Below are positions 4,762-29,269 of a DNA stretch of 64,000 nucleotides, piece by piece. A model generated the notes under the pieces. That model worked only from the letters and a program-made list of their open reading frames with translations. It did no database searches and was not told where the DNA came from. The stretch is from the NCBI GenBank assembly GCA_029856145.1, contig JAHQWK010000004.1:32001-96000 (forward strand). The letters are read 5' to 3'. Source of the stretch: Promethearchaeia archaeon. GTDB taxonomy: Archaea > Asgardarchaeota > Lokiarchaeia > Sigyniarchaeales > SOKP01. Position 1 is the first letter of the stretch. Each line of letters begins with the position of its first letter. The translations under genes and the position numbers were made by a program.

Positions 4762-5292
4762 ATGGTTCAAAAACAGGAATATGAAGATATGGATCAAATT
4801 TCCATCCTATCGTTTAAGATTGGTAGGGAAGAGTTCGTTATCGATCTCTTCGATGTGAAAGAAATAATTCAAGCAGGTCTAATAAGAAAATTACCAAAAA
4901 GCTTAGATTATATAGATGGAATCTATAATTACAGAGGGGAAATTATTCACATAATTAATTTAAAGAAAAAATTGAATTTGAATCAATATATTTTGTATTC
5001 AAGAAACTCCTCTATCGAAGAAGAATCAAGTACGTCGAAAAATTTCATTATAATTCTTAAAGTTGATAATAATCTGGTAGGATTTTATGTTGATCAAATA
5101 ATCAGTATTGATCATATTGATCCCACTGAGATTGTTGGATTAAGCCCAATCTTTCAAACTAATGTTGCTATGGAATATATTAAAGGAATTATTAACTTTG
5201 AACGGCGACCAAGAGTTATGCTTGATTTAAGCAAAATTTTTAGTGAAGTTGAGAAATTCAAAATTGAACAAGATTTATCATCATTAACATAA
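4762..5292 (+). CDS. cheW: Chemotaxis adaptor CheW
   Basis: LSFKIGREEFVIDL..VKEII, LPKS..YIDGIYNYRGEII, VGFYVDQI, YIKGI, LDL motifs. Confidence 0.93.
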   Translation: MVQKQEYEDMDQISILSFKIGREEFVIDLFDVKEIIQAGLIRKLPKSLDYIDGIYNYRGEIIHIINLKKKLNLNQYILYSRNSSIEEESSTSKNFIIILKVDNNLVGFYVDQIISIDHIDPTEIVGLSPIFQTNVAMEYIKGIINFERRPRVMLDLSKIFSEVEKFKIEQDLSSLT

Positions 5293-5312
5293 ATTAAAAA
5301 GGAGTTGATAAA

Positions 5313-5690
5313 ATGACAAATAATAAAAAAAAAGTTTTGATAGTTGATGATGCAGCCTTTACAAGGAACATGCTTAAAAATATAATAAACAAGATCGAAC
5401 AAATTGAAGTTATCGGTGAAGCTTCAAATGGAGTGGAAGCTATCTCTTTATACAAGAAATTAAATCCTGATTTAGTTACTATGGATTTGGTTATGCCTGA
5501 AAAGGGTGGTATTGAGGCAACTGAAGAGATTCTAAAAATTAACTCAAAAGCATTGATAGTAGTGGTTTCTGCACTCGGTCAGGAGGCTCTTGTACTTGAG
5601 GCAGCAAAAAAAGGGGCAAAGGACTTTATCCAAAAACCATTCAAAACAGAGCAAATATTAGAAGTTATGGATCGAATTTTAAAGAAATAA
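5313..5690 (+). CDS. cheY: Chemotaxis response regulator CheY
   Basis: Stand-alone REC domain: VDD, phospho-Asp in TMDLVMP, VSA, KPF; SD-like GGAG upstream; lies between cheW and cheA. Confidence 0.93.
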   Translation: MTNNKKKVLIVDDAAFTRNMLKNIINKIEQIEVIGEASNGVEAISLYKKLNPDLVTMDLVMPEKGGIEATEEILKINSKALIVVVSALGQEALVLEAAKKGAKDFIQKPFKTEQILEVMDRILKK

Positions 5691-5774
5691 CATCTCTCAC
5701 ATCTGGTTGAGATTCTGGACAATATCTTAAAAAAATAAAAAAAACAATGAAAAAAAAAAATTTAAGGTGATTAT

Positions 5775-7850
5775 GTGTCATCTAAAGACGATATAAAGCT
5801 TTTCATAAGTGAAGCCGAGGATCTGATTCAAAAAACGGAAGATGAAATTCTAAAATTAGAAGAAAATCCAAATGATTTAAAACCAATTCAGGAACTTTTT
5901 TTCACATTTCATGCACTAAAAGGATTAACAGCGATGGCAGGTTTTGACAACTTATCTAAATTTTGTCATCATTTTGAATCTTTTTTAGAAAATACTAAGG
6001 ATAAGAAAGAGTCTAAAATCAAAAGAGAAAATTTCATCGAAATGCTATTTGAGAGTATTGATGTATTAAGAAATGTCATAAAGAGAGTAAAAAAAGGAGA
6101 TTTAAGTGATATTGATAATAAATTTGTAGAAGATATTAAAAATAGTTTTGAAAGTTTTGAGAATGAGTATGATATCACTTTTATTCAGCCTTTAAACTCA
6201 GAGGAAGTTACCCAAATCCTTAAACAAAAAGATATCAAATCATTTAAGATATATATTCGCCTTGAAGAAACATGTGTTTTCAAAAAGGTAAGGTTATTTA
6301 TTATATTTAGAGCATTAAATGAAAATGGAAAAATTTGCTGGACTAATCCTGCTCCTGAAGATTTAGAAAAAGCTACTCTCAAAAATGAGTTTGAAATTTA
6401 CTTTTTTAGCAATAAAAATAAGGATAATATTTCTCATGTTTTAGATGAAATTCTTGAAATCGAAAGTATAGTTATTACTCCATTAAAATCTGAAGAATTC
6501 ATAAAAATAATTAATAGTCTTAAGGAAAAATGGGAAAATGAAAAACCAGAACCCTTAAGCGATGATTTCTTTGAAGATGATTTTGAAGAAGACGTTGATA
6601 CTCAAGAACTGGAGCGAGTTTCACAAATTGTAGGTGATTTCTCAGAAGATACCCTTAAAATAATGAGTGTTAAAGTTAATATTGAGTATATAGAGGAATT
6701 AATGAATTATTTTGGAGAATTAGTAATAATGAAGAATCATATCAATCAACTTCTAAAGGAAAAACAAGATAGAATAATCGTACGGTTAATAGATAAAATG
6801 GATAAGCCTTTTCTAGATATACAAGAAATACTTTTTAGATTAAAACTAGTTCGAGTTGATTCAACATTCAGAAAATATAAAAGACTTGTTCGCAATGTAG
6901 CAAATGAAACTGGTAAGAAAATAAAATTAATTCTTGAAGGAATAAATGTAGAAATTGATAGAAAAATCCTAGAAGAAATTAACACTCCGCTGGTTCAATT
7001 AATTAGGAATGCAATTTATCATGGAATCGAATCTCCAAGAGATCGAATTAAAAAACGGAAAATTGAAATTGGTATATTGAAAATAAAAACATTTAGAAGA
7101 GCAGGATCCATTTTCATAGAAGTTCAAGATGATGGCGCGGGGCTTAATTATGATACAATAAGGGAAAAGGTTGTGAAAAAAGGTTATTATGACTCAATTG
7201 AAGTGGAACAACTAGCAAACGAGGATTTACATAAGTTTATACTAATGCCCGGGTTCTCAACACTTTCAGAAGCAGATATAATCTCTGGTAGAGGTATGGG
7301 TTTAGCAATCGTGGCTGAAAAAATAAAAGAATTAGGTGGTGATTTTACTATTCAATCTCAAGCTGGTGTTGGTACAAAATTTACAATCATCGTTCCATTT
7401 ACAAGAGCAATATTAAAAGCACAACAAATTCAGATTTCTGATGATTTATTTGCAATTCCAACTGAAAACATTAAACAAATATACTTTTTCAATCCAAGTC
7501 AAGTTGAATATGTAGATGGCCAACAATTTTACAAGATAAATTCAAAATTAATGCCAATTATTCATTTAGATGAGTATTTAAATATGGTAGAAAAAAGTAC
7601 AACAAATTCTCATAAAAAAATTGCAATATGGTGTCAAGGAGATGAGGATAGTTCAGCAGTGTTTATTGCAGATAAACAATTACAACAATTAGATGTAGTT
7701 GTGAAACCATTCAAGTCTAACTATTCAGATTCACGGGATATTTTAGGATCAACAATTACAGGAGAAGGTTCAATATGTCTAATTATCGACGTTTTAAGTA
7801 TAATTTCATCTATTTTAAATGAAAATATAATATCAAATTTAAATTTATAA
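5775..7850 (+). CDS. cheA: Chemotaxis histidine kinase CheA (Hpt-P2-dimerisation-HATPase-CheW)
   Basis: Hpt FHALKG, P2 region KKVRLFIIFRAL, LMNYFGELVI, IRNA..HGIE, DDGAG, PGFST, SGRGMGL, C-terminal CheW domain; SD AGGTGA before the GTG start. Confidence 0.96.
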   Translation: MSSKDDIKLFISEAEDLIQKTEDEILKLEENPNDLKPIQELFFTFHALKGLTAMAGFDNLSKFCHHFESFLENTKDKKESKIKRENFIEMLFESIDVLRNVIKRVKKGDLSDIDNKFVEDIKNSFESFENEYDITFIQPLNSEEVTQILKQKDIKSFKIYIRLEETCVFKKVRLFIIFRALNENGKICWTNPAPEDLEKATLKNEFEIYFFSNKNKDNISHVLDEILEIESIVITPLKSEEFIKIINSLKEKWENEKPEPLSDDFFEDDFEEDVDTQELERVSQIVGDFSEDTLKIMSVKVNIEYIEELMNYFGELVIMKNHINQLLKEKQDRIIVRLIDKMDKPFLDIQEILFRLKLVRVDSTFRKYKRLVRNVANETGKKIKLILEGINVEIDRKILEEINTPLVQLIRNAIYHGIESPRDRIKKRKIEIGILKIKTFRRAGSIFIEVQDDGAGLNYDTIREKVVKKGYYDSIEVEQLANEDLHKFILMPGFSTLSEADIISGRGMGLAIVAEKIKELGGDFTIQSQAGVGTKFTIIVPFTRAILKAQQIQISDDLFAIPTENIKQIYFFNPSQVEYVDGQQFYKINSKLMPIIHLDEYLNMVEKSTTNSHKKIAIWCQGDEDSSAVFIADKQLQQLDVVVKPFKSNYSDSRDILGSTITGEGSICLIIDVLSIISSILNENIISNLNL

Positions 7851-7912: not shown

Positions 7913-9934
7913 ATGGGTTTTAAAAAGATTGACCATGACGAATTAAAAACAAAAATTAGCCCAAATTTTCTTGGCATCCCTATAAGGGAAGGTGGAAAGT
8001 TAGTACAGAAAAGTCAAAGAGAAAAGAAAATTGAATCTAGTTATACAGGTTCAATGTCAGAAGTATTAATATTAAATGAAGAATTTTTAGAATTCCAATA
8101 TCAAAATGATGGAACAAGAAAAGCAGTTACAGGTAACGGAAATATCTCAATATTTAATAATTCTGTTAAAGATAGAATTTGGGATGCAAATTTACAGTTT
8201 TCAGGCTCACAATTTGATAATCAAGAGAAAGAAAACAATATAAATTTAGGGATTTTTGAGCCTAGTTCAAATAAAATATTAAAATATGAAATTGTAAATT
8301 CCGATGATTTACCGGATTTAATAAAAGTAAATGAAAATATTGAAGTTCTGAGTGAAGATATTACTCAAGAAGGGTTAGAATTTCCTGAAAATGAAGAATT
8401 AAATGTATGTAATAAAAAACATTATTTACTAGTAATTGGAAAAGAAAATAAGGTAAAATTTTTAATTGATATAGTAAATGTCTCAAATTCGATGTTAGAA
8501 AATATCAAGTTTAAGAAATTATTTGTTAATAATTTTTATGACTTAGAATTTGACTGTAGCAAGAGCAAAGAATTTAAATTTACTAATAATTCTGTAGAAT
8601 GTACTATAAACGGTCTAAACCCTGGAGAAAAAGCAGAATTAACAATCACCGCTAATATTTTCCCTAAGAAGAAGGAAAATATTAAAACTGGTAAAATCGA
8701 AATAACCTACAACTTATCATCAAACGTAATTTCAGGCGTGAAAATCAATCAATTCTCAGCATATTCTCATGCAATGCATGCTATTGAGAAAGTAGAGAAA
8801 AATGATGCTCCAAATCATTGGGAATGTTCATTAATTTTCGAAAACCATAGTGACTTTAAATTGAAGTTAAATTCAATTCTGATCTATGATAAGACCAAAT
8901 CGAAAAAAATTTTAGATTTAGATTTTAGTACATCTGGTACTACAAAAATTAATCCTCGTGGAATATATAAAACCCAACATTTTAATTTGATTGATGAAAA
9001 AGAACCTATTTTCTCAAGAAAAGTCGAATATTCTGTTGATTATAAAACAGAGAACAATTCAATGATTACCACGAGATTTGATGACATTATCTTTAAAATA
9101 GTTAATATTACGATAAAAAAGAAATTACCTGAACAAGAAATTAAATCATTTGAGGAGACTACACTAAATTCTGAAATTATTATAAACAACCAAGGTACTG
9201 TTCCAATTAAAGGACTTCGAATAGTTGAAAAAATTCCTGAAGATTTCTTGCCACCAAGAAATTTATCTGATTTTACACTGTATAAATCATCTGGTAAACT
9301 AGAAATCGATGATATTGAATTAAATTTAAGTCCAGATGATGATGATCCCTCACATGAGCATATTATTGAAATAAGTATTAATTTAAAAAATGATACTTCA
9401 AAATCAGTTATTAGTACAGAAGATTTCTTAGAATTAAAATATCCATTTAAAGCAATTACTCCTAATTATAAAAAAGATTACGATTTCCCTGTTAAAGTCT
9501 ACGCTTATTATCCGATGTATGAAAAATCTGAAGTAGAAGGGCTTAGGGGACATTATGTTTTAATGGATGATCTCTCTAGTAAGGATACGTCTTCTTTAAA
9601 AATCACACATAAACGGCGGAAATTAATGATTGGAAAACAAATCTTTCCTGGAAGGAGTAGTGATGAATTTGCTATTTATATTGTGGCAAAGAACGGTTCA
9701 AATATTAAACTTAGTGATGTAGACATTACAGATGCTTTTCCAAATTCTTTTGAACTAATTTCCTCAAATGTAGAACATAAGATTAGCAAATCTAAAAATA
9801 ACGGAGAACAAAAAATTTCTTTCACAATCGATTCACTCCTACCTTATCAAGAAAAAGAGATAATGTATTATCTAAAAAGCTTAAGCGGAAAGGATGTATC
9901 ACAATCAGAATTAGAGTCATTTTTTGTTGGATAA
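7913..9934 (+). CDS. Large cytoplasmic beta-sandwich repeat protein (several DUF11/Ig-like modules)
   Basis: Repeated modules such as ITIKKKL..EIIINNQGTVPIKGLRIVEKIPEDF and IGKQI..IYIVAKNGSNIKLSDVDITDAFPNSFELI; no signal peptide or TM segment; SD GGAGG. Confidence 0.6.
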   Translation: MGFKKIDHDELKTKISPNFLGIPIREGGKLVQKSQREKKIESSYTGSMSEVLILNEEFLEFQYQNDGTRKAVTGNGNISIFNNSVKDRIWDANLQFSGSQFDNQEKENNINLGIFEPSSNKILKYEIVNSDDLPDLIKVNENIEVLSEDITQEGLEFPENEELNVCNKKHYLLVIGKENKVKFLIDIVNVSNSMLENIKFKKLFVNNFYDLEFDCSKSKEFKFTNNSVECTINGLNPGEKAELTITANIFPKKKENIKTGKIEITYNLSSNVISGVKINQFSAYSHAMHAIEKVEKNDAPNHWECSLIFENHSDFKLKLNSILIYDKTKSKKILDLDFSTSGTTKINPRGIYKTQHFNLIDEKEPIFSRKVEYSVDYKTENNSMITTRFDDIIFKIVNITIKKKLPEQEIKSFEETTLNSEIIINNQGTVPIKGLRIVEKIPEDFLPPRNLSDFTLYKSSGKLEIDDIELNLSPDDDDPSHEHIIEISINLKNDTSKSVISTEDFLELKYPFKAITPNYKKDYDFPVKVYAYYPMYEKSEVEGLRGHYVLMDDLSSKDTSSLKITHKRRKLMIGKQIFPGRSSDEFAIYIVAKNGSNIKLSDVDITDAFPNSFELISSNVEHKISKSKNNGEQKISFTIDSLLPYQEKEIMYYLKSLSGKDVSQSELESFFVG

Positions 9935-9983
9935 ATAGAAAAAAAAATAATAAAATTTAAGAAAAAAAAATGGAGGAAGTATT

Positions 9984-10835
9984 ATGAGACTACAATATTA
10001 TGAAACAATGGATGATAAATCGAAAGAATATGTATTGTATCTTATCGAGCAGATTGTTCCACAATTTACTAAAAGTGAACTGGATACCTTTTTACAAGAT
10101 CTTACTATAAAACCTACTAAGAAAAGTAAGAGTTCAAAATCAAAATCAGATCAAAAATACATTCAAATTGGGAATGATATTGGAAAAACTGCTGATTTAT
10201 CCAAACTAACTAAAGAACAATTAAGATTATGTTTTCAAATATTTATAAGTAGAGAAAAAAATGATACATTTGCAGTAAAGTGGCGTTTTTATCAATACAT
10301 TAAATACGTGTTAAATCTAAATATAAAATCAGTAAAAATAAATCTTGATCCAAATATTGATCGATTATTAGATTTTATTATTGAAACTGTCGATAAGGAA
10401 ATAATTCTAGTTTTATGCTATGATGTTTTAGAATTAAAAGACTTTAATACAGCAATAAATCAATTAAATGAATTTGCAAAAAAACAAAATTTAATTCCTG
10501 ATAGGATTATTTTTACGACAAGTAAATCATTCCGGAATATACCAATTGATAGTCCTATTAAAATCATAAATAAGGAAATAGAACCAGAGTTATGGATCGA
10601 ATGGATTGAAGAAAATTGCCCTTTCAATAAAGAAGACTTGTTAATTTTAAATAACTCTGAATTAAAAGTTGCAGGTTTTAATTTTACCAGTACAGACGAT
10701 TTATTAAATTATATTTTTAAGTATTCAAATGGCGGGGGTCAAATTTCAATTTATAAGCAATTAGATTTTTTTACTGAAGTTAGTGAGGAGGAACCCGAAG
10801 TAGAATTAATTTGGAAAGGAATTATGTTAAAATAA
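9984..10835 (+). CDS. Hypothetical protein in the che cluster, possibly a degenerate PD-(D/E)XK-like fold
   Basis: 283-aa ORF with SD GGAGG; LDFIIET..EIILVLC resembles a nuclease core but lacks the ExK motif. Confidence 0.55.
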   Translation: MRLQYYETMDDKSKEYVLYLIEQIVPQFTKSELDTFLQDLTIKPTKKSKSSKSKSDQKYIQIGNDIGKTADLSKLTKEQLRLCFQIFISREKNDTFAVKWRFYQYIKYVLNLNIKSVKINLDPNIDRLLDFIIETVDKEIILVLCYDVLELKDFNTAINQLNEFAKKQNLIPDRIIFTTSKSFRNIPIDSPIKIINKEIEPELWIEWIEENCPFNKEDLLILNNSELKVAGFNFTSTDDLLNYIFKYSNGGGQISIYKQLDFFTEVSEEEPEVELIWKGIMLK

Positions 10836-10878: not shown

Positions 10879-12858
10879 ATGATAAAAAGCGAAACAGAAG
10901 GAATTGAGTTTGGAGAAAGTGTAAATGTTGTAATAATTCAAGTTCTTGATGAGAAATATCTCATTGAAGTAGAAAATGTTAAAGAAATATATGTCCCAGG
11001 AGATAAAATAGTTCCAATTCCATTAACAGAAAAAAGTATAGTTGGTATCATTAATATTAGGGGAGAGATTTATTCAATCATTTCATTAAGACATAATATT
11101 AATGATAATGATGTTGATTATGGGTTGAGTGATAAATCAAGAATTCTATTATTAGAATATAAAGATTTAAAAATTGCATTGTTAGTAGATGCAGTAATAG
11201 GAGTTAAAGATATTCCTTTTTCAGTCTTTAAAAAACAGGGCACGATTGTAAAAACTAATATTGATTTTAGATTAATTAAACTAACAGGCATTTTTCAAGA
11301 TGAATCATTAATATTATTAGATCTAGATGCTTTAATTTTACCCTACATTAAATCCTTAGGTAGAAAAATAGAGAAAAAGGTAGAAGCAAAACCGAAAATT
11401 ATTGGAGGACCTAAAGTAAAACCCAAACTATCTCCTAAACCGACACCTACAGTTGAATCCACAGTTGTAATCCCTCAGGAAACCTACGTTCCAATGAACT
11501 TATCATCCATTCCTGAAGATGAAATTGGCAAGGGGGTTTCTTTATCAGCTGAACAAGAAGATATACTCAAAGAAATAGGCAATATTGGTGCTGGAAATGC
11601 GGTCACAGCCTTATCTCGATTAGTTAAAAAGAAAATTGATGTGACCTTAACTGATGTAGGAATAATACCTTTAGATGAATTGCCAGAACAATTTGGTGGA
11701 TCTAAAGAGAAGGTATGTGGAATTTTCTGCCATATAGATAAACCATCTCAAGCAACTATTTTAAATATTTTCGAAATGACTCCTTTGATGCAAATGATTG
11801 CAGATTTAGCAGGAAAAAAATCTAAAATCAATCCAAGTAAAGTTAAAACTAAAAAAGATCTTGATGATTTTGCAGTTTCTACAATTGTAGAAATGGGAAA
11901 TATTATGGCGGGGCATTATGCTTCAGCACTAGCAGATTTATTAGGTACAAAATTAATGATTGACATTCCTGAATTTACGATGAGTGAAGCTGGAGAGATT
12001 GGAGAATTTCTAACTAAAGAGTTGAAATCAATTGCTGAATTTTTCATAATAATCAAAACTTCAATAAAAGTCGCCGATTTGAAACTTAAAGGAATGTTTT
12101 TCTTTATCCCTGATCTTGAAACTTTGAAAATATTTTTCGACAAACTAGGAATAGAGCATGAAATATCTATCAAAAGTTTAAAAACTCAGAAAACACTTGA
12201 GCTAATAGATGTTTCTAATATAAAACTCACAGAAATTCAAAGAGATGCTTTACAAGAAGTTGGTAATATTGGTGCAGGAAATGCGGCTAATGCATTAGCT
12301 CAAATGATTAATAAAAGAGTTGATATAAATATCCCATCTGTTGAAATGGTTGAATTAGATGAGTATGCTAATACAATTAGTAATAAGAATGAAAAACTCT
12401 TAGTTGCTTGGAGCAATGTTATTGGTAAAACAAGAGCTACAGTTTTAACATTGTTTAACATTAAAGATGCAATTGATATAACATCCATAATCTTAGATGA
12501 TAGAGACAAGAAACAAATTGACTTAAGGAAGAAAATTATTATGGCATCAGATTTTCCAGAGCTTTATCATAGTGCAATTTCAGAACTAGGTCACATCTTG
12601 GGAAGCCATTATGTAAGTGCAATAGGTGATCTATTAGGCCTGCGACTCATGACCGAGCCCCCTGATGTCTCTGTCGATACAGGAAACCAATTATTCGAAA
12701 TATTAAAAGAGGAAATTGGTTTACTTAAGAAATTATCGTTAGTTATCACAACGAGCGTTATAATCACAGATATCAAAATTACAGGAACGTTCTTATTCAT
12801 ACCTAATTTAGAAACATTACAAGAATTATTGGATGCACTTTTAAGGTTTTATTCATAA
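10879..12858 (+). CDS. CheW-CheC-CheC fusion protein
   Basis: N-terminal CheW domain (VKEI, IVPIP, VGIINIRGEI, LLVDAVIGV), Pro/Lys linker, then two CheC domains (EIGNIGAG/EMGNIMAG and EVGNIGAG/ELGHILGS). Confidence 0.9.
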   Translation: MIKSETEGIEFGESVNVVIIQVLDEKYLIEVENVKEIYVPGDKIVPIPLTEKSIVGIINIRGEIYSIISLRHNINDNDVDYGLSDKSRILLLEYKDLKIALLVDAVIGVKDIPFSVFKKQGTIVKTNIDFRLIKLTGIFQDESLILLDLDALILPYIKSLGRKIEKKVEAKPKIIGGPKVKPKLSPKPTPTVESTVVIPQETYVPMNLSSIPEDEIGKGVSLSAEQEDILKEIGNIGAGNAVTALSRLVKKKIDVTLTDVGIIPLDELPEQFGGSKEKVCGIFCHIDKPSQATILNIFEMTPLMQMIADLAGKKSKINPSKVKTKKDLDDFAVSTIVEMGNIMAGHYASALADLLGTKLMIDIPEFTMSEAGEIGEFLTKELKSIAEFFIIIKTSIKVADLKLKGMFFFIPDLETLKIFFDKLGIEHEISIKSLKTQKTLELIDVSNIKLTEIQRDALQEVGNIGAGNAANALAQMINKRVDINIPSVEMVELDEYANTISNKNEKLLVAWSNVIGKTRATVLTLFNIKDAIDITSIILDDRDKKQIDLRKKIIMASDFPELYHSAISELGHILGSHYVSAIGDLLGLRLMTEPPDVSVDTGNQLFEILKEEIGLLKKLSLVITTSVIITDIKITGTFLFIPNLETLQELLDALLRFYS

Positions 12859-14912: not shown

Positions 14913-15452
14913 GTGAATAATATTAAAACCTATGGACGTATTGAAAAAATGGATAGAAATGGTGAGGCTTTCTTACCCATAGGTCATTATTTTATCACAA
15001 ATTGTAAGAATAAACCAAAAAATATTCATCCAAAAGTATCAATTTATGGATTAGGCTCTTGTATTGCTCTAATTCTTATTGATTTCAAAAATAAAGTATG
15101 TGGAATGTCTCACATTTTACTTCCTAAAGCCCGTCTAAATAAAACAATAGATTATCCTCATAAATATGCAGATCTCTCTTTAAAATTATTAATTCAAGAT
15201 CTAAAAAAGCATGGAGCTGTGAAAGAAAACATAATGGCAATCATAGTAGGGGGTTCAAAAATTTTTAATTTAGATGAAAATTTTATGGGGATTGATAATA
15301 CTAAAGCTATTAAAGAACAATTGGAAAAATTAAAGATTAAAGTTATCGGAGAAGATACTGGAGGATCTGAAGGGAGGGGGATAATATTTGATACTAAAGA
15401 TTTCGCTGTTTACGTTAAATTAACAAGAGAACAAAATTATAAAAAAATTTAA
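14913..15452 (+). CDS. cheD: Chemoreceptor glutamine deamidase CheD
   Basis: GLGSCIAL, GMSHILLP, KYAD, GGSKIF, EDTGG..GR. Confidence 0.93.
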   Translation: MNNIKTYGRIEKMDRNGEAFLPIGHYFITNCKNKPKNIHPKVSIYGLGSCIALILIDFKNKVCGMSHILLPKARLNKTIDYPHKYADLSLKLLIQDLKKHGAVKENIMAIIVGGSKIFNLDENFMGIDNTKAIKEQLEKLKIKVIGEDTGGSEGRGIIFDTKDFAVYVKLTREQNYKKI

Positions 15453-15496
15453 TATATAAAAAGAGAATGTCATAAAAATTGGAAGAGGAAATAAAA

Positions 15497-16165
15497 ATGA
15501 ATGAAAAGGTCACAAATCAATCTGCTAAGATAAACCTAACAGAAGCACAATTGGATATGTTAAAAGAAATTGGCAATATCGGTTCTGGACATGCAATAAC
15601 AGCACTTTCTGAGATATTGAATAAAAATGTAGAAGTTTCATTAACATCAGCAGAAATACATTCCTTTTGGAAAGTTCCAGATCTGTTTGATAATCATAAT
15701 ATAGAAGTAGTAGTTATATATTCTGAAATTCCCTTTAATTCGGATCTCGCAATTATCCAAATATTTCCCAAAGAATCAATAATTAATCTGATAAATTTAT
15801 TAAACGATTATGATAAAAAATCCATAGATAATGTAAATAGCAATAATGATTTGGACGATTTCTCCTATAGCATTATAAATGAAATCGGTAATATTTTGAG
15901 TGGCCATTATGCTAGTGCTTTAGCAGATTTGTTGTCAATTAAACTAATCCCAAAGGTGCCAAAAGTAGCAATTGATACATTAAATGCCATCCTAAATTGC
16001 ATTATCGCAAAATATTCCCAATTGATAGATTATTTGATATTAATAAATACAAAATTAATAGTTTCAGATTTGAATATAAATGGAACAATTTGCCTTATTC
16101 CAAGTATTGAAATTCTAAGGAGTTTATTTGAGATTTTAAACGTAAAATATGATATGAACTTATAA
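15497..16165 (+). CDS. cheC: CheY-P phosphatase CheC
   Basis: DMLKEIGNIGSGHAITALS and EIGNILSG..P motifs; SD GAGG before ATG 15497 (TTG 15479 is an alternative start). Confidence 0.93.
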   Translation: MNEKVTNQSAKINLTEAQLDMLKEIGNIGSGHAITALSEILNKNVEVSLTSAEIHSFWKVPDLFDNHNIEVVVIYSEIPFNSDLAIIQIFPKESIINLINLLNDYDKKSIDNVNSNNDLDDFSYSIINEIGNILSGHYASALADLLSIKLIPKVPKVAIDTLNAILNCIIAKYSQLIDYLILINTKLIVSDLNINGTICLIPSIEILRSLFEILNVKYDMNL

Positions 16166-26899: not shown

Positions 26900-29269
26900 T
26901 CATAATTTGATAGATCTTGCTATAACATTCCGAAAATTTTCTAGATCTGTTACAAGTTTATCAGCGTCTTCATCCGTAATTTTATCATCTTTTCCATATT
27001 TATTCAAGTTGGTTAACCAAAACTCCATTCTCCCAAGAATAGCTTCTTTATCTCCCATAATTTTTCTTACTCTAACAAAAGTATCATGCAACTTAGTTCT
27101 AATGTTTTGGGCTTTCCATCTTAACATACAATAGTCTGACATCTCTGCTAAATTCTGGGTTATAGCCATTATATCAATAGTTTTTTCACGTTCTTCGCTT
27201 TTAATCTTCCTTATTAAATTGATCTCTTCAAATAAGAGCTCTATAACCTTGGCTAAGAAGCCAGTCAACTGGCCGCTATGTGCCGCCCAGATCCTAACTT
27301 CTAATGATTGGTTTGCTTCAGATACATAAATACGCGTAATTATTCTTCCTCCCCCGACTTTCGCTTCTGAGCAATGCCAACTTTCTGCTTCATATTTTCC
27401 TTTAGCATCAGTACCTTCATGAGAAGTTACTGTGCTTACTTCAAAACGTTTTATTGTTCTTACTGCCGCTCTAAAACCCAAACGCGGATCTAAATCTGCA
27501 ATTAAAAATGCTCGAGCATCATTTGGAAGATCTGCAATAGATATTTGAATATCTTCTATGGTGGCTAAGCAGGATACCACTAATGGGCATTTAATTTGAA
27601 CAGCCTTTTTACGGATATGAACGGTCCTTTTTTCCCCTGATGCAGTTTTGTAGATAACATCACCCCCAATATTGGAGATTCCACATTCTTTTGGTTCTAA
27701 ATAAAAATCAACGCCCCTAGAATTATTTGCTTCAATAACGGGTATGTTAATGAGGGGATCTTTTGTTTTATAACTAGAAGGAACATCTAAAAGGACTTTT
27801 ACTGAATTGATTGCCATATTAGTTTGATTTCTCACAGCAATTTTAAAGTGTAATTGTCCACCAATAAAATCATAATCACGAACAACTTCGATTTTACCAC
27901 CATCTGAAGATTTATTAGCTGTTGGTTCAGCTTGTGTTTTAGCTTCCATGGGGACACTATACGCAACAAAGATTTTCTTTGCCATATCAATGTATCCATC
28001 GATATCTCCACGTGCTATAATTTGGGCCAAATTCTCTTCAATACTGGACTCAGTCACCCCCAATCTATTTGAAAGTTCTCTTAAAGGCATCGTTCTATAA
28101 GCTCTGGCGATTTCTCTTATTTTCTTCTCCATGCGTTTATTAGTCATAAATTCTCTTCTTTGAGTAAAAATACCTTTAATTTTACCTGTCTTAATTAACT
28201 CATGAAGGCTTTTTCTTGCTAATTCTACAGCAATTTTTAATTTTGAGGCGAGTTTTGAAAGCTCGAATAAGCCCGTTTCTTTTGAATATCTTTTAATTTC
28301 TTGATAAATTTGATTAGCAGTAATAATTTCGTTTCCACGATCTGCGAAAAATCCATTTACAGCTTTTGTTCTCATTAAATTAACGCAAAATGATTTAACA
28401 AGTTCTTGAGGGATATTAAAAATATTAGCAAGATCTTTTAGAGATACCCGACCTTTGCTCTTAATCTCTTTTATTAAATTATCTAATATGTGTTTTTGAG
28501 TATAATATATCTCTTTGTTTAATGAGAACGAACCTTTTATTTGGAACTGGTTAATTAATTTATAAATTACTTTTAGAGCAATTTCAGAACTCATATCAAG
28601 CATTACTCCTAGATCAGCCACATTAATTATACCTTCATCTTGAAATTTAGCTAATATATTTTCGCGCATCTCAGAAGATATATAGTAAAACATCTGGTTT
28701 TTTTGATCTATAATTCCATAGATTCGTTCTTCTTCAATATATTTATTAATAAATTTAATCATTTGCTCCGCAGAAATATTAAATGAATTCATTATTGTTG
28801 AAAAGTTAGTAATCGGAGCTATTTTTAATAAATCTAGAAAGCATTTAGGACAGACTTCTTTTCCAATAATATGACGTAATTTCTTACTGCATAAAATTAA
28901 TCTATTAGTTTTAATGAGATTATATCTTAATGCTTCTCTTGCAAGTTTTTCTTTTGAAGGAAAAAATAATCCCGGTGTCTTTAAATAAGAATTCCATGAT
29001 TCTGGGCAATTTCGATTAGTACATTCTAAATAATATTGTCCTGAGGATAATCTTTCTAATCTTAGAAGATGTTTACATACAGGACATTCACTATTTTCTA
29101 CAACTGTACATTTATAATTTCTTTCGATTGCTTTTACCTTAGAATAAATTAGATTATGTTTTCTACATTCGTGTATTTCAGTAGTAGCAATATGATTAAT
29201 ACAGAAGCTAGATTTACATTTCTCACACGTGAAATCGATTTTTTGACTTTCACAGAATAAACATTTCAT
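26900..29269 (-). CDS. Zn-finger plus tandem winged-helix (UFL1/DDRGK/PCI-like) plus Ig/platform-like protein
   Basis: N-terminal CxxC clusters; five WH repeats ending I.G.(I/F); C-terminal IEVVRDYDF..LHFKIAVRN beta-sandwich followed by an alpha/beta domain. Confidence 0.7.
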   Translation of the reverse strand: MKCLFCESQKIDFTCEKCKSSFCINHIATTEIHECRKHNLIYSKVKAIERNYKCTVVENSECPVCKHLLRLERLSSGQYYLECTNRNCPESWNSYLKTPGLFFPSKEKLAREALRYNLIKTNRLILCSKKLRHIIGKEVCPKCFLDLLKIAPITNFSTIMNSFNISAEQMIKFINKYIEEERIYGIIDQKNQMFYYISSEMRENILAKFQDEGIINVADLGVMLDMSSEIALKVIYKLINQFQIKGSFSLNKEIYYTQKHILDNLIKEIKSKGRVSLKDLANIFNIPQELVKSFCVNLMRTKAVNGFFADRGNEIITANQIYQEIKRYSKETGLFELSKLASKLKIAVELARKSLHELIKTGKIKGIFTQRREFMTNKRMEKKIREIARAYRTMPLRELSNRLGVTESSIEENLAQIIARGDIDGYIDMAKKIFVAYSVPMEAKTQAEPTANKSSDGGKIEVVRDYDFIGGQLHFKIAVRNQTNMAINSVKVLLDVPSSYKTKDPLINIPVIEANNSRGVDFYLEPKECGISNIGGDVIYKTASGEKRTVHIRKKAVQIKCPLVVSCLATIEDIQISIADLPNDARAFLIADLDPRLGFRAAVRTIKRFEVSTVTSHEGTDAKGKYEAESWHCSEAKVGGGRIITRIYVSEANQSLEVRIWAAHSGQLTGFLAKVIELLFEEINLIRKIKSEEREKTIDIMAITQNLAEMSDYCMLRWKAQNIRTKLHDTFVRVRKIMGDKEAILGRMEFWLTNLNKYGKDDKITDEDADKLVTDLENFRNVIARSIKL

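Follow-up and report, generated by a model that had tools for sequence, protein, structure and literature searches.

A CheW–CheC–CheC fusion protein as a candidate array-anchored CheY-P phosphatase in Lokiarchaeia

Why would a chemosensory pathway join a CheC-type phosphatase covalently to CheW, the adaptor of the chemoreceptor array, and what would the join do to the signal carried by phosphorylated CheY (CheY-P)? The question is posed by a 64,000-nucleotide stretch of DNA (the window; AT-rich, G+C ~29%) from a Promethearchaeia archaeon (contig JAHQWK010000004.1, positions 32,001 to 96,000). There, an open reading frame (ORF) on the + strand runs from 10879 to 12858 without interruption and encodes 659 amino acids plus a stop, with a CheW domain followed by a linker and then by two complete CheC domains. 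We judge it rather more probable than improbable that the product, CheW–CheC–CheC, is a CheY-P phosphatase module anchored to the chemoreceptor array, a reading drawn largely from conserved residues, folds, and gene context. The gene and its parts are as follows.

10879..12858, + strand: the whole CheW–CheC–CheC gene (ORF list, translation, Pfam CheW and four CheC stretches, homologous clusters)
10927..11337, + strand: CheW domain (residues 17-153), a divergent "CheW2" paralog (Pfam, fold match, CheW tree)
11350..11532, + strand: linker 1 (residues 158-218), Lys/Pro-rich and disordered (predicted local distance difference test (pLDDT) <50, composition)
11533..12165, + strand: CheC domain 1, called C1 (residues 219-429), with two canonical ExxN sites (phmmer, site table, tree)
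12166..12210, + strand: linker 2 (residues 430-444), of variable length among relatives (pLDDT <50)
12211..12855, + strand: CheC domain 2, called C2 (residues 445-659), with one canonical site, one ExxH site, and Asp600 (alignment, tree)
12583..12594, + strand: site 4, E-L-G-H, with an invariant His (cluster representatives)

A preliminary description, made from the letters of the DNA, had divided the ORF into a CheW domain, a Pro/Lys linker of ~60 residues, and two complete CheC domains, and this division is confirmed by the ORF, Pfam, AlphaFold2 (AF2), and Foldseek. Pfam places CheW (PF01584) at residues 17-153 (E 1e-19; 70.9 bits against a curated cut-off of 23.5) and detects four half-motif stretches of CheC (PF04509; E 1.9e-38); NCBIfam is in accord, as it reports a pair of CheC-like stretches and, weakly, CheW. 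The AF2 model, made from 34 homologs, has three folded domains and disordered joints at residues 158-218 and 430-444 (pLDDT <50). By Foldseek, the CheC domains match Thermotoga maritima CheC (1xkr, 2f9z) with template-modeling (TM) scores of 0.85-0.89 and E values down to 1e-12, and the CheW domain matches CheW structures at TM 0.77-0.80; phmmer aligns C1 to 1xkr/2f9z at E 2e-22. Of the 61 residues of linker 1, 11 are Lys and 9 are Pro; across 119 relatives, its length is 47-68 residues. Linker 2 ranges from 11 to 67 residues in relatives, and its longest forms carry Pro/Ala/Lys-rich or Asp/Glu/Val/Thr-rich repeats (P0063, P0073, P0081, and P0107; alignment A1, columns 470-520). Pfam finds neither a FliN/SpoA domain in the protein, which ends with C2, nor a receiver domain (Response_reg). 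Membership in FliY is thus ruled out by the missing FliN domain, and membership in CheV by the missing receiver.

The case for catalysis lies in the four half-sites. These read D228-x3-E232-x2-N235 (site 1) and S334-x3-E338-x2-N341 (site 2) in C1, and D456-x3-E460-x2-N463 (site 3) and S565-x3-E569-x2-H572 (site 4, ELGH) in C2. When they are set against the motif D/S-x3-E-x2-N-x22-P, sites 2 and 3 match in full, and at site 1 a Thr replaces the trailing Pro. The catalytic Glu and Asn are therefore present at three of the four half-sites, with His in the place of Asn at site 4. Among 120 cluster representatives (56-100% identity), the Asn is retained in 119, 118, and 119 at sites 1, 2, and 3, and site 4 is His in all 120. 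Because of this uniformity, the ExxH of site 4 is a fixed, lineage-specific change and not decay. The equivalent position is Asn in six of ten distant fusions of the same layout, which are only 21-27% identical and which we call group B (group A being the close relatives). The count given in the preliminary description, three intact ExxN sites and an ELGH in the fusion and five ExxN sites once the window's stand-alone CheC is included, is correct (five ExxN and one ExxH); any reading of ELGH as a degenerate or decayed site fails. The mean column identity over 34 relatives is 66%, and CheW–CheC–CheC is under strong purifying selection. The predicted CheY-P phosphatase sites are thus the canonical pair in C1 and the one in the first half of C2, a prediction that belongs to the array-anchored reading and in which our confidence lies, likewise, a little on the favorable side of even.

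The fusion is not an artifact of assembly. A chimera is ruled out by at least 120 homologous protein clusters from independent Asgard assemblies, one of them a 3.3-Mb single-contig genome, together with a conserved locus order. All 120 listed homologs carry CheW plus CheC, and in 119 our domain models give the full CheW–C1–C2 layout, the remaining one being a partial record; the gene is, as first supposed, a single genuine ORF. The closest protein relatives come from metagenome-assembled genomes named Promethearchaeota or Lokiarchaeia.

Could the CheW domain dock such a protein onto an array? Its residues E36 and R61 correspond in alignment to E38 and R62 of Escherichia coli CheW, which form a conserved salt bridge that joins the receptor- and kinase-binding sites (PMC3828127). 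E36 and R61 are invariant in both alignments that we made (A1 and A2), including the fusions at 21-27% identity, and the domain as a whole is strongly conserved within the family (alignment of 34 relatives). In the CheW tree, it groups with an unfused second CheW (CheW2) of another genome, G128 (support 99/100), on a long stem and apart from the canonical CheW of the operon (99/99). The source genome encodes a complete CheA/CheW/CheY/CheB/CheD set, with four matches to the signaling domain of methyl-accepting chemotaxis proteins (MCPs) and, outside the window, two good CheR matches; it has no CheW domains beyond the three of the window and no CheC domains outside two window genes, the fusion and the stand-alone cheC. 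Putative chemoreceptor arrays have been seen by electron cryotomography in a cultured Lokiarchaeon (PMC9834061). The retained E36/R61 pair, the constraint on the CheW domain, and the MCP genes make the tethering of phosphatase to the kinase array, as the preliminary description proposed, plausible; the short-range signal that it attached to the tether does not hold, for reasons given below.

The two CheC modules may not be equivalent with respect to CheD. Two further genes of the operon enter here.

14913..15452, + strand: CheD (Pfam; alignment with Bacillota CheD)
15479..16165, + strand: stand-alone CheC, the closest paralog of C1, with two ExxN sites (Pfam, alignment, tree)

In CheD, the catalytic Cys/His motifs are retained, as is the CheC-contacting Phe (KIF here, QMF in Bacillota CheD), equivalent to F102, whose role in CheC contact is described (PMC3513319). 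On the CheC side, the D149K mutant of Bacillus subtilis CheC loses CheD binding and chemotaxis and keeps phosphatase activity (PMC3513319). In a mapping inferred from alignment spacing, the D149 equivalent is Asp in C2 (D600, invariant) and in the stand-alone CheC, which directly follows cheD, and Ser or Thr in C1. This single-residue evidence suggests a division of labor, in which C1 would simply be a phosphatase and C2 would be the half under regulation.

Taken together, these features would fit the following mechanism. The specialized second CheW paralog would enter the receptor/CheA/CheW lattice beside the canonical CheW1. The disordered Lys/Pro linker of ~60 residues would then allow both CheC modules to be suspended beneath the baseplate, in the region where CheA phosphorylates CheY, and there C1 and the first half of C2, judging by their catalytic residues, would hydrolyze CheY-P near its site of production. 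C2, with its equivalent of the Asp on which CheD binding depends in B. subtilis and its fixed ExxH, would be the likelier regulatory half and could, together with CheD and the free CheC, feed back on the receptors through CheC/CheD/CheY-P. One would then expect fast termination, high gain, and a spatially uniform CheY-P level, with no short-range signal.

The slot of the gene in the operon is conserved as well. In seven loci (L001-L007), the order is a longin-like gene, cheW, cheY, cheA, a gene for an immunoglobulin (Ig)-like DUF11 protein, a 283-aa gene, the CheW–CheC–CheC gene, a 181-aa gene, cheB, cheD, cheC, and cheB; the two CheB proteins carry receiver domains, and every operon compared still has its canonical CheW1. 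The upstream genes in the window are these.

4762..7850, + strand: canonical cheW1, cheY, and cheA of the operon (Pfam; synteny in L001-L007)
7913..10835, + strand: the DUF11/Ig-like protein and the 283-aa protein that precede the fusion gene (synteny)

The DUF11/Ig-like protein (673 aa, 7913-9934, +), whose gene separates cheA from the 283-aa gene, occurs in duplicate in one locus of group B (L084). The 283-aa protein (9984-10835, +) is encoded immediately upstream of the CheW–CheC gene in every variant examined. It has no Pfam, NCBIfam, or Atlas match; its AF2 model (pLDDT 71, predicted TM (pTM) score 0.70) resembles a PD-(D/E)xK nuclease-like core only at background level (best Z 7.8). This pair of DUF11 and 283-aa genes stands before the CheW–CheC slot not only in group A but also in group B (G134), a form with CheW and one CheC (G129), and an unfused form (G128). 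Elsewhere in the window, a 789-aa protein (26900-29269, -) has PCI, UFM1-ligase-like, DDRGK, and VPS28 Pfam matches and is a gene of the eukaryote-signature type.

The operon cheY is the single CheY of the window, as the preliminary description stated, but not of the genome, where a second paralog is 60% identical to it (G000:C9:359946-360308). This second cheY (L085:7938-8318, -) is an orphan: its neighbors are metabolic genes of the thiolase, acyl-CoA dehydrogenase, and glycerol-3-phosphate-oxidase-like kinds. Besides both CheYs, the genome encodes several other receiver-only proteins.

Beyond these loci, the fusion is narrowly and unevenly distributed. Of the families represented in a scan of 400 Asgard species genomes, that of the window and one neighbor alone yielded full-length copies, and within the genus, the full-length fusion is present in 22 of 53 genomes. 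CheA occurs in 45 of the 135 family genomes, and 42 of these 45 match the fusion query, mostly at full length and otherwise as contig-end pieces or shorter single-CheC forms. In the three CheA-positive genomes with no fusion match, the CheA matches are truncated, at a contig edge, or weak; one further family genome matched the query only at its free CheC. Because CheA and the fusion share the same patchiness, the che system is gained or lost as a block, and the fusion gene is a constant member of it. The operon can be split, as in G189, a single-contig genome of the same genus in which cheA and the CheW–CheC–CheC gene lie >1 Mb apart (contig coordinates C1:356076-358142 and C1:1439338-1441308).

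How such a protein arose can be read in part from a maximum-likelihood tree of 81 CheC domains. C1 is sister to a clade of Asgard free CheCs that contains the stand-alone CheC of the window (96/97). The clade that holds C2 (100/97) also contains shorter CheW–CheC proteins of Asgard archaea and an unfused cheC, which in G128, a member of a sister lineage, directly follows the second cheW in the slot after the DUF11 and 283-aa genes. By these placements, C1 and C2 differ in origin, and C2 derives from a cheC that stood beside a divergent second cheW. The likely history would be that a cheW2–cheC pair fused, an echo of the gene order cheA–cheW–cheC that Bacillota keep unfused, and that a module related to the free CheC afterward took up its place between the two parts. 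The two separate genes of G128, cheW2 with 184 aa and cheC with 213 aa, lie 14 nt apart (L082:7324-8534) and represent a natural "before" state; in this CheC, the second half-site is K-x-x-N. For group B, placed taxonomically by three phylum-scan genomes and a single named record, the C-terminal domains share one side of a weakly supported branch (70/72) with the C2 clade, and the gene occupies the same slot, so that a common origin of the group A and group B fusions is possible.

Other pairings of CheW with CheC occur outside these groups. In Methanocella species, CheW is fused to a single CheC, both domains being confirmed by Pfam, and the tree places this CheC inside a group of euryarchaeal free CheCs (100/98). 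A single origin that includes this fusion was rejected, since a common clade with Asgard C2 gave p = 2.5e-6 in the approximately unbiased test (p-AU), for a group named after inspection of the tree; the Methanocella fusion thus arose independently. A third type is a 549-aa CheW–spacer–CheC protein (L081:9784-11928; G138, a 6.04-Mb genome in one contig from the same taxonomic order), in which ~180 residues between CheW and CheC have no assignment and whose CheC domain, together with two relatives, makes up a lineage of its own (100/95). It is directly followed by cheD, as cheC is by cheD in Bacillus. Bacillota have the order cheA–cheW–cheC with cheW and cheC as adjacent but separate genes, and in a Halanaerobiales locus, cheC comes after a pair of cheW genes. 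The ~1.07-1.1-kb tblastn matches that might have suggested fusion in Bacillota proved to be separate cheW and cheC ORFs 1-4 nt apart, so that this candidate was set aside, and no bacterial CheW–CheC fusion was present among the named hits. Many proteins of ~470-560 aa consist of three CheW domains each in tandem (P0165, P0196, P0210, P0214-P0218, and others). As far as named records show, the CheW–CheC architecture is thus rare, archaeal, and recurrent, and because it arose repeatedly, proximity of CheW and CheC would seem to be useful. The proposal that the architecture is unusual holds in the sense that the search confines the fusion to archaea in named records, with only adjacent genes in Bacillota, and it is not common in ordinary flagellar Che systems. 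Yet Methanocella has its own CheW–CheC fusion, and in Methanocella RC-I MRE50 chemotaxis and flagella genes are present. The literature that we searched contained no description of a CheW–CheC fusion, and the source databases annotate these proteins simply as CheC or CheW.

There is also the effect of an array-anchored phosphatase on the signal to consider. The preliminary description drew from the tether a very short-range CheY-P signal, suited to a local output beside the array. Reaction-diffusion theory, together with the array location of CheZ in E. coli, points the other way: where kinase and phosphatase are co-located, the steady-state profile of the messenger is uniform and gain is maximal, and gradients appear when the two are apart (PMC2014792). 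Because co-location yields a uniform profile, tethering alone gives no short-range signal, and the earlier inference runs backward. By the same analysis, only the free CheC could shape a CheY-P gradient. That this free CheC is present, and could alone generate such a gradient, does lend something to the idea of a local signal, as does the failure to detect an archaellum or CheF, which makes a non-motor and possibly local target conceivable; a short-range signal created by the tether nevertheless seems to us improbable. The same failure bears on a second alternative, in which the CheC modules would serve mainly as CheY-P binding platforms, in the manner of FliM or FliY, and the fusion would be an output hub to the Ig-like, 283-aa, and 181-aa operon partners. 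Neither CheF nor an archaellum was found as a known CheY-P target. The fold common to CheC and the FliM middle domain would suit it, as would the DUF11 and 283-aa genes that precede the fusion even in distant variants and the fixed His that stands for the catalytic Asn at one site. However, the catalytic Glu and Asn are near-invariant at three of four sites, as is typical of active CheC/CheX/FliY enzymes, and we think a pure binding role unlikely. Similar doubt attaches to a combined form of this idea for motor-less Loki-type Asgard archaea, in which CheW–CheC–CheC would be the hub of a rewired chemosensory pathway, with C1 as the phosphatase and C2, through its ExxH, as a non-hydrolyzing sensor of CheY-P or CheB-P that controls CheD and the operon partners. 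If true, bacterial-type sensing would thereby be connected to an output that is non-archaellar and possibly cytoskeletal.

Several observations weigh against the array-anchored phosphatase itself. The output of the whole pathway has no recognized target, as neither CheF nor an archaellin above the Pfam cut-off was found in the source genome (97% complete) or in the 135 family genomes. A long branch (stem 1.28) separates the fused CheW domain from canonical CheW, and the partners of the domain may have changed. AF2 gives no reliable arrangement between the domains (pTM 0.38). The assignment of CheD to C2 rests on one residue, and the stand-alone CheC, because it is encoded next to cheD, would be an equal or better CheD partner. 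The second of these points leads to a further alternative, that the divergent CheW domain stays out of arrays, the protein being either a soluble phosphatase bound to the P5 domain of CheA or a regulator of array size that caps the lattice. In addition to the long stem and the separation of its clade from canonical CheW1, the lower Pfam score of the fused domain (70.9 bits versus 89.1 for CheW1) and the retention of CheW1 in every operon are what such a role might leave behind. But the E36/R61 pair and the overall CheW fold are kept, and the domain is highly conserved in the family, so that we regard exclusion from arrays as doubtful. Finally, the two CheC modules could differ in receiver substrate, one acting on CheY and the other on the CheB receivers or the second CheY, and so tune adaptation. 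The two operon CheB proteins with receiver domains, the second CheY in the genome, the interaction of Halobacterium CheC1 with CheB (PMC3579733), and the different CheC lineages of C1 and C2 would all allow this. The sequence, on the other hand, carries no signal of specificity. Dephosphorylation of CheB by a CheC-type enzyme has, to our knowledge, never been demonstrated, and we take a split in substrates to be improbable. The array-anchored CheY-P phosphatase thus remains the reading that we prefer.

In known systems, the location of the CheY-P phosphatase is a key design variable, being the array in E. coli and the motor in B. subtilis. If our reading is right, the protein described here would be a hard-wired variant, in which the phosphatase is covalently joined to the array adaptor, which has more than one origin in archaea and which this Asgard family retains wherever it has retained CheA (42 of 45 CheA-positive genomes). 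The host cells, in which no archaellum or CheF is recognizable, are close kin of the eukaryotic ancestor, and the fusion offers a handle on the role of arrays there; the pairing of a canonical module with a fixed ExxH module makes for simple, testable mutants. The closest relatives in fold are the CheC proteins of T. maritima and B. subtilis (1XKR; 2F9Z in complex with CheD), which share with it the sequence family, two pseudo-symmetric halves, a D/S-x3-E-x2-N motif in each half, and, in our operon, the company of cheD. Unlike them, the protein here has two CheC domains fused to CheW, one ExxH half-site, and a C1 that lacks the CheD-contacting Asp. CheC3 of Halobacterium salinarum likewise has two CheC domains in tandem in one chain, is encoded in an archaeal che cluster, and interacts with CheD, but is described with no mention of a CheW domain (PMC3579733). 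CheC–CheC proteins in our CheC tree, possible relatives of CheC3, fall apart from the Asgard fusion. The functional analog is CheZ of E. coli, which, through the short form of CheA, places a CheY-P phosphatase with the kinase at the receptor cluster and gives uniform CheY-P (PMC2014792); CheZ, however, belongs to an unrelated family and is recruited non-covalently through CheA rather than by a fused CheW. The Methanocella CheW–CheC proteins (such as those of Methanocella sp. CWC-04 and MCL-LM) also have CheW N-terminal to CheC but, in addition to their independent origin, are shorter at 361-446 aa, with one CheC whose half-sites are both canonical ExxN. FliY (4hyn), too, anchors a CheC-type phosphatase domain to a large assembly through a fused domain, the difference being that its anchor is the motor C-ring, reached through FliN, and here it is a CheW domain. 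CheV, a CheW domain fused to a receiver, is likewise a CheW-type adaptor that brings an extra signaling domain into the array, but in CheV the appended domain is a phospho-acceptor, whereas here it is a phosphatase.

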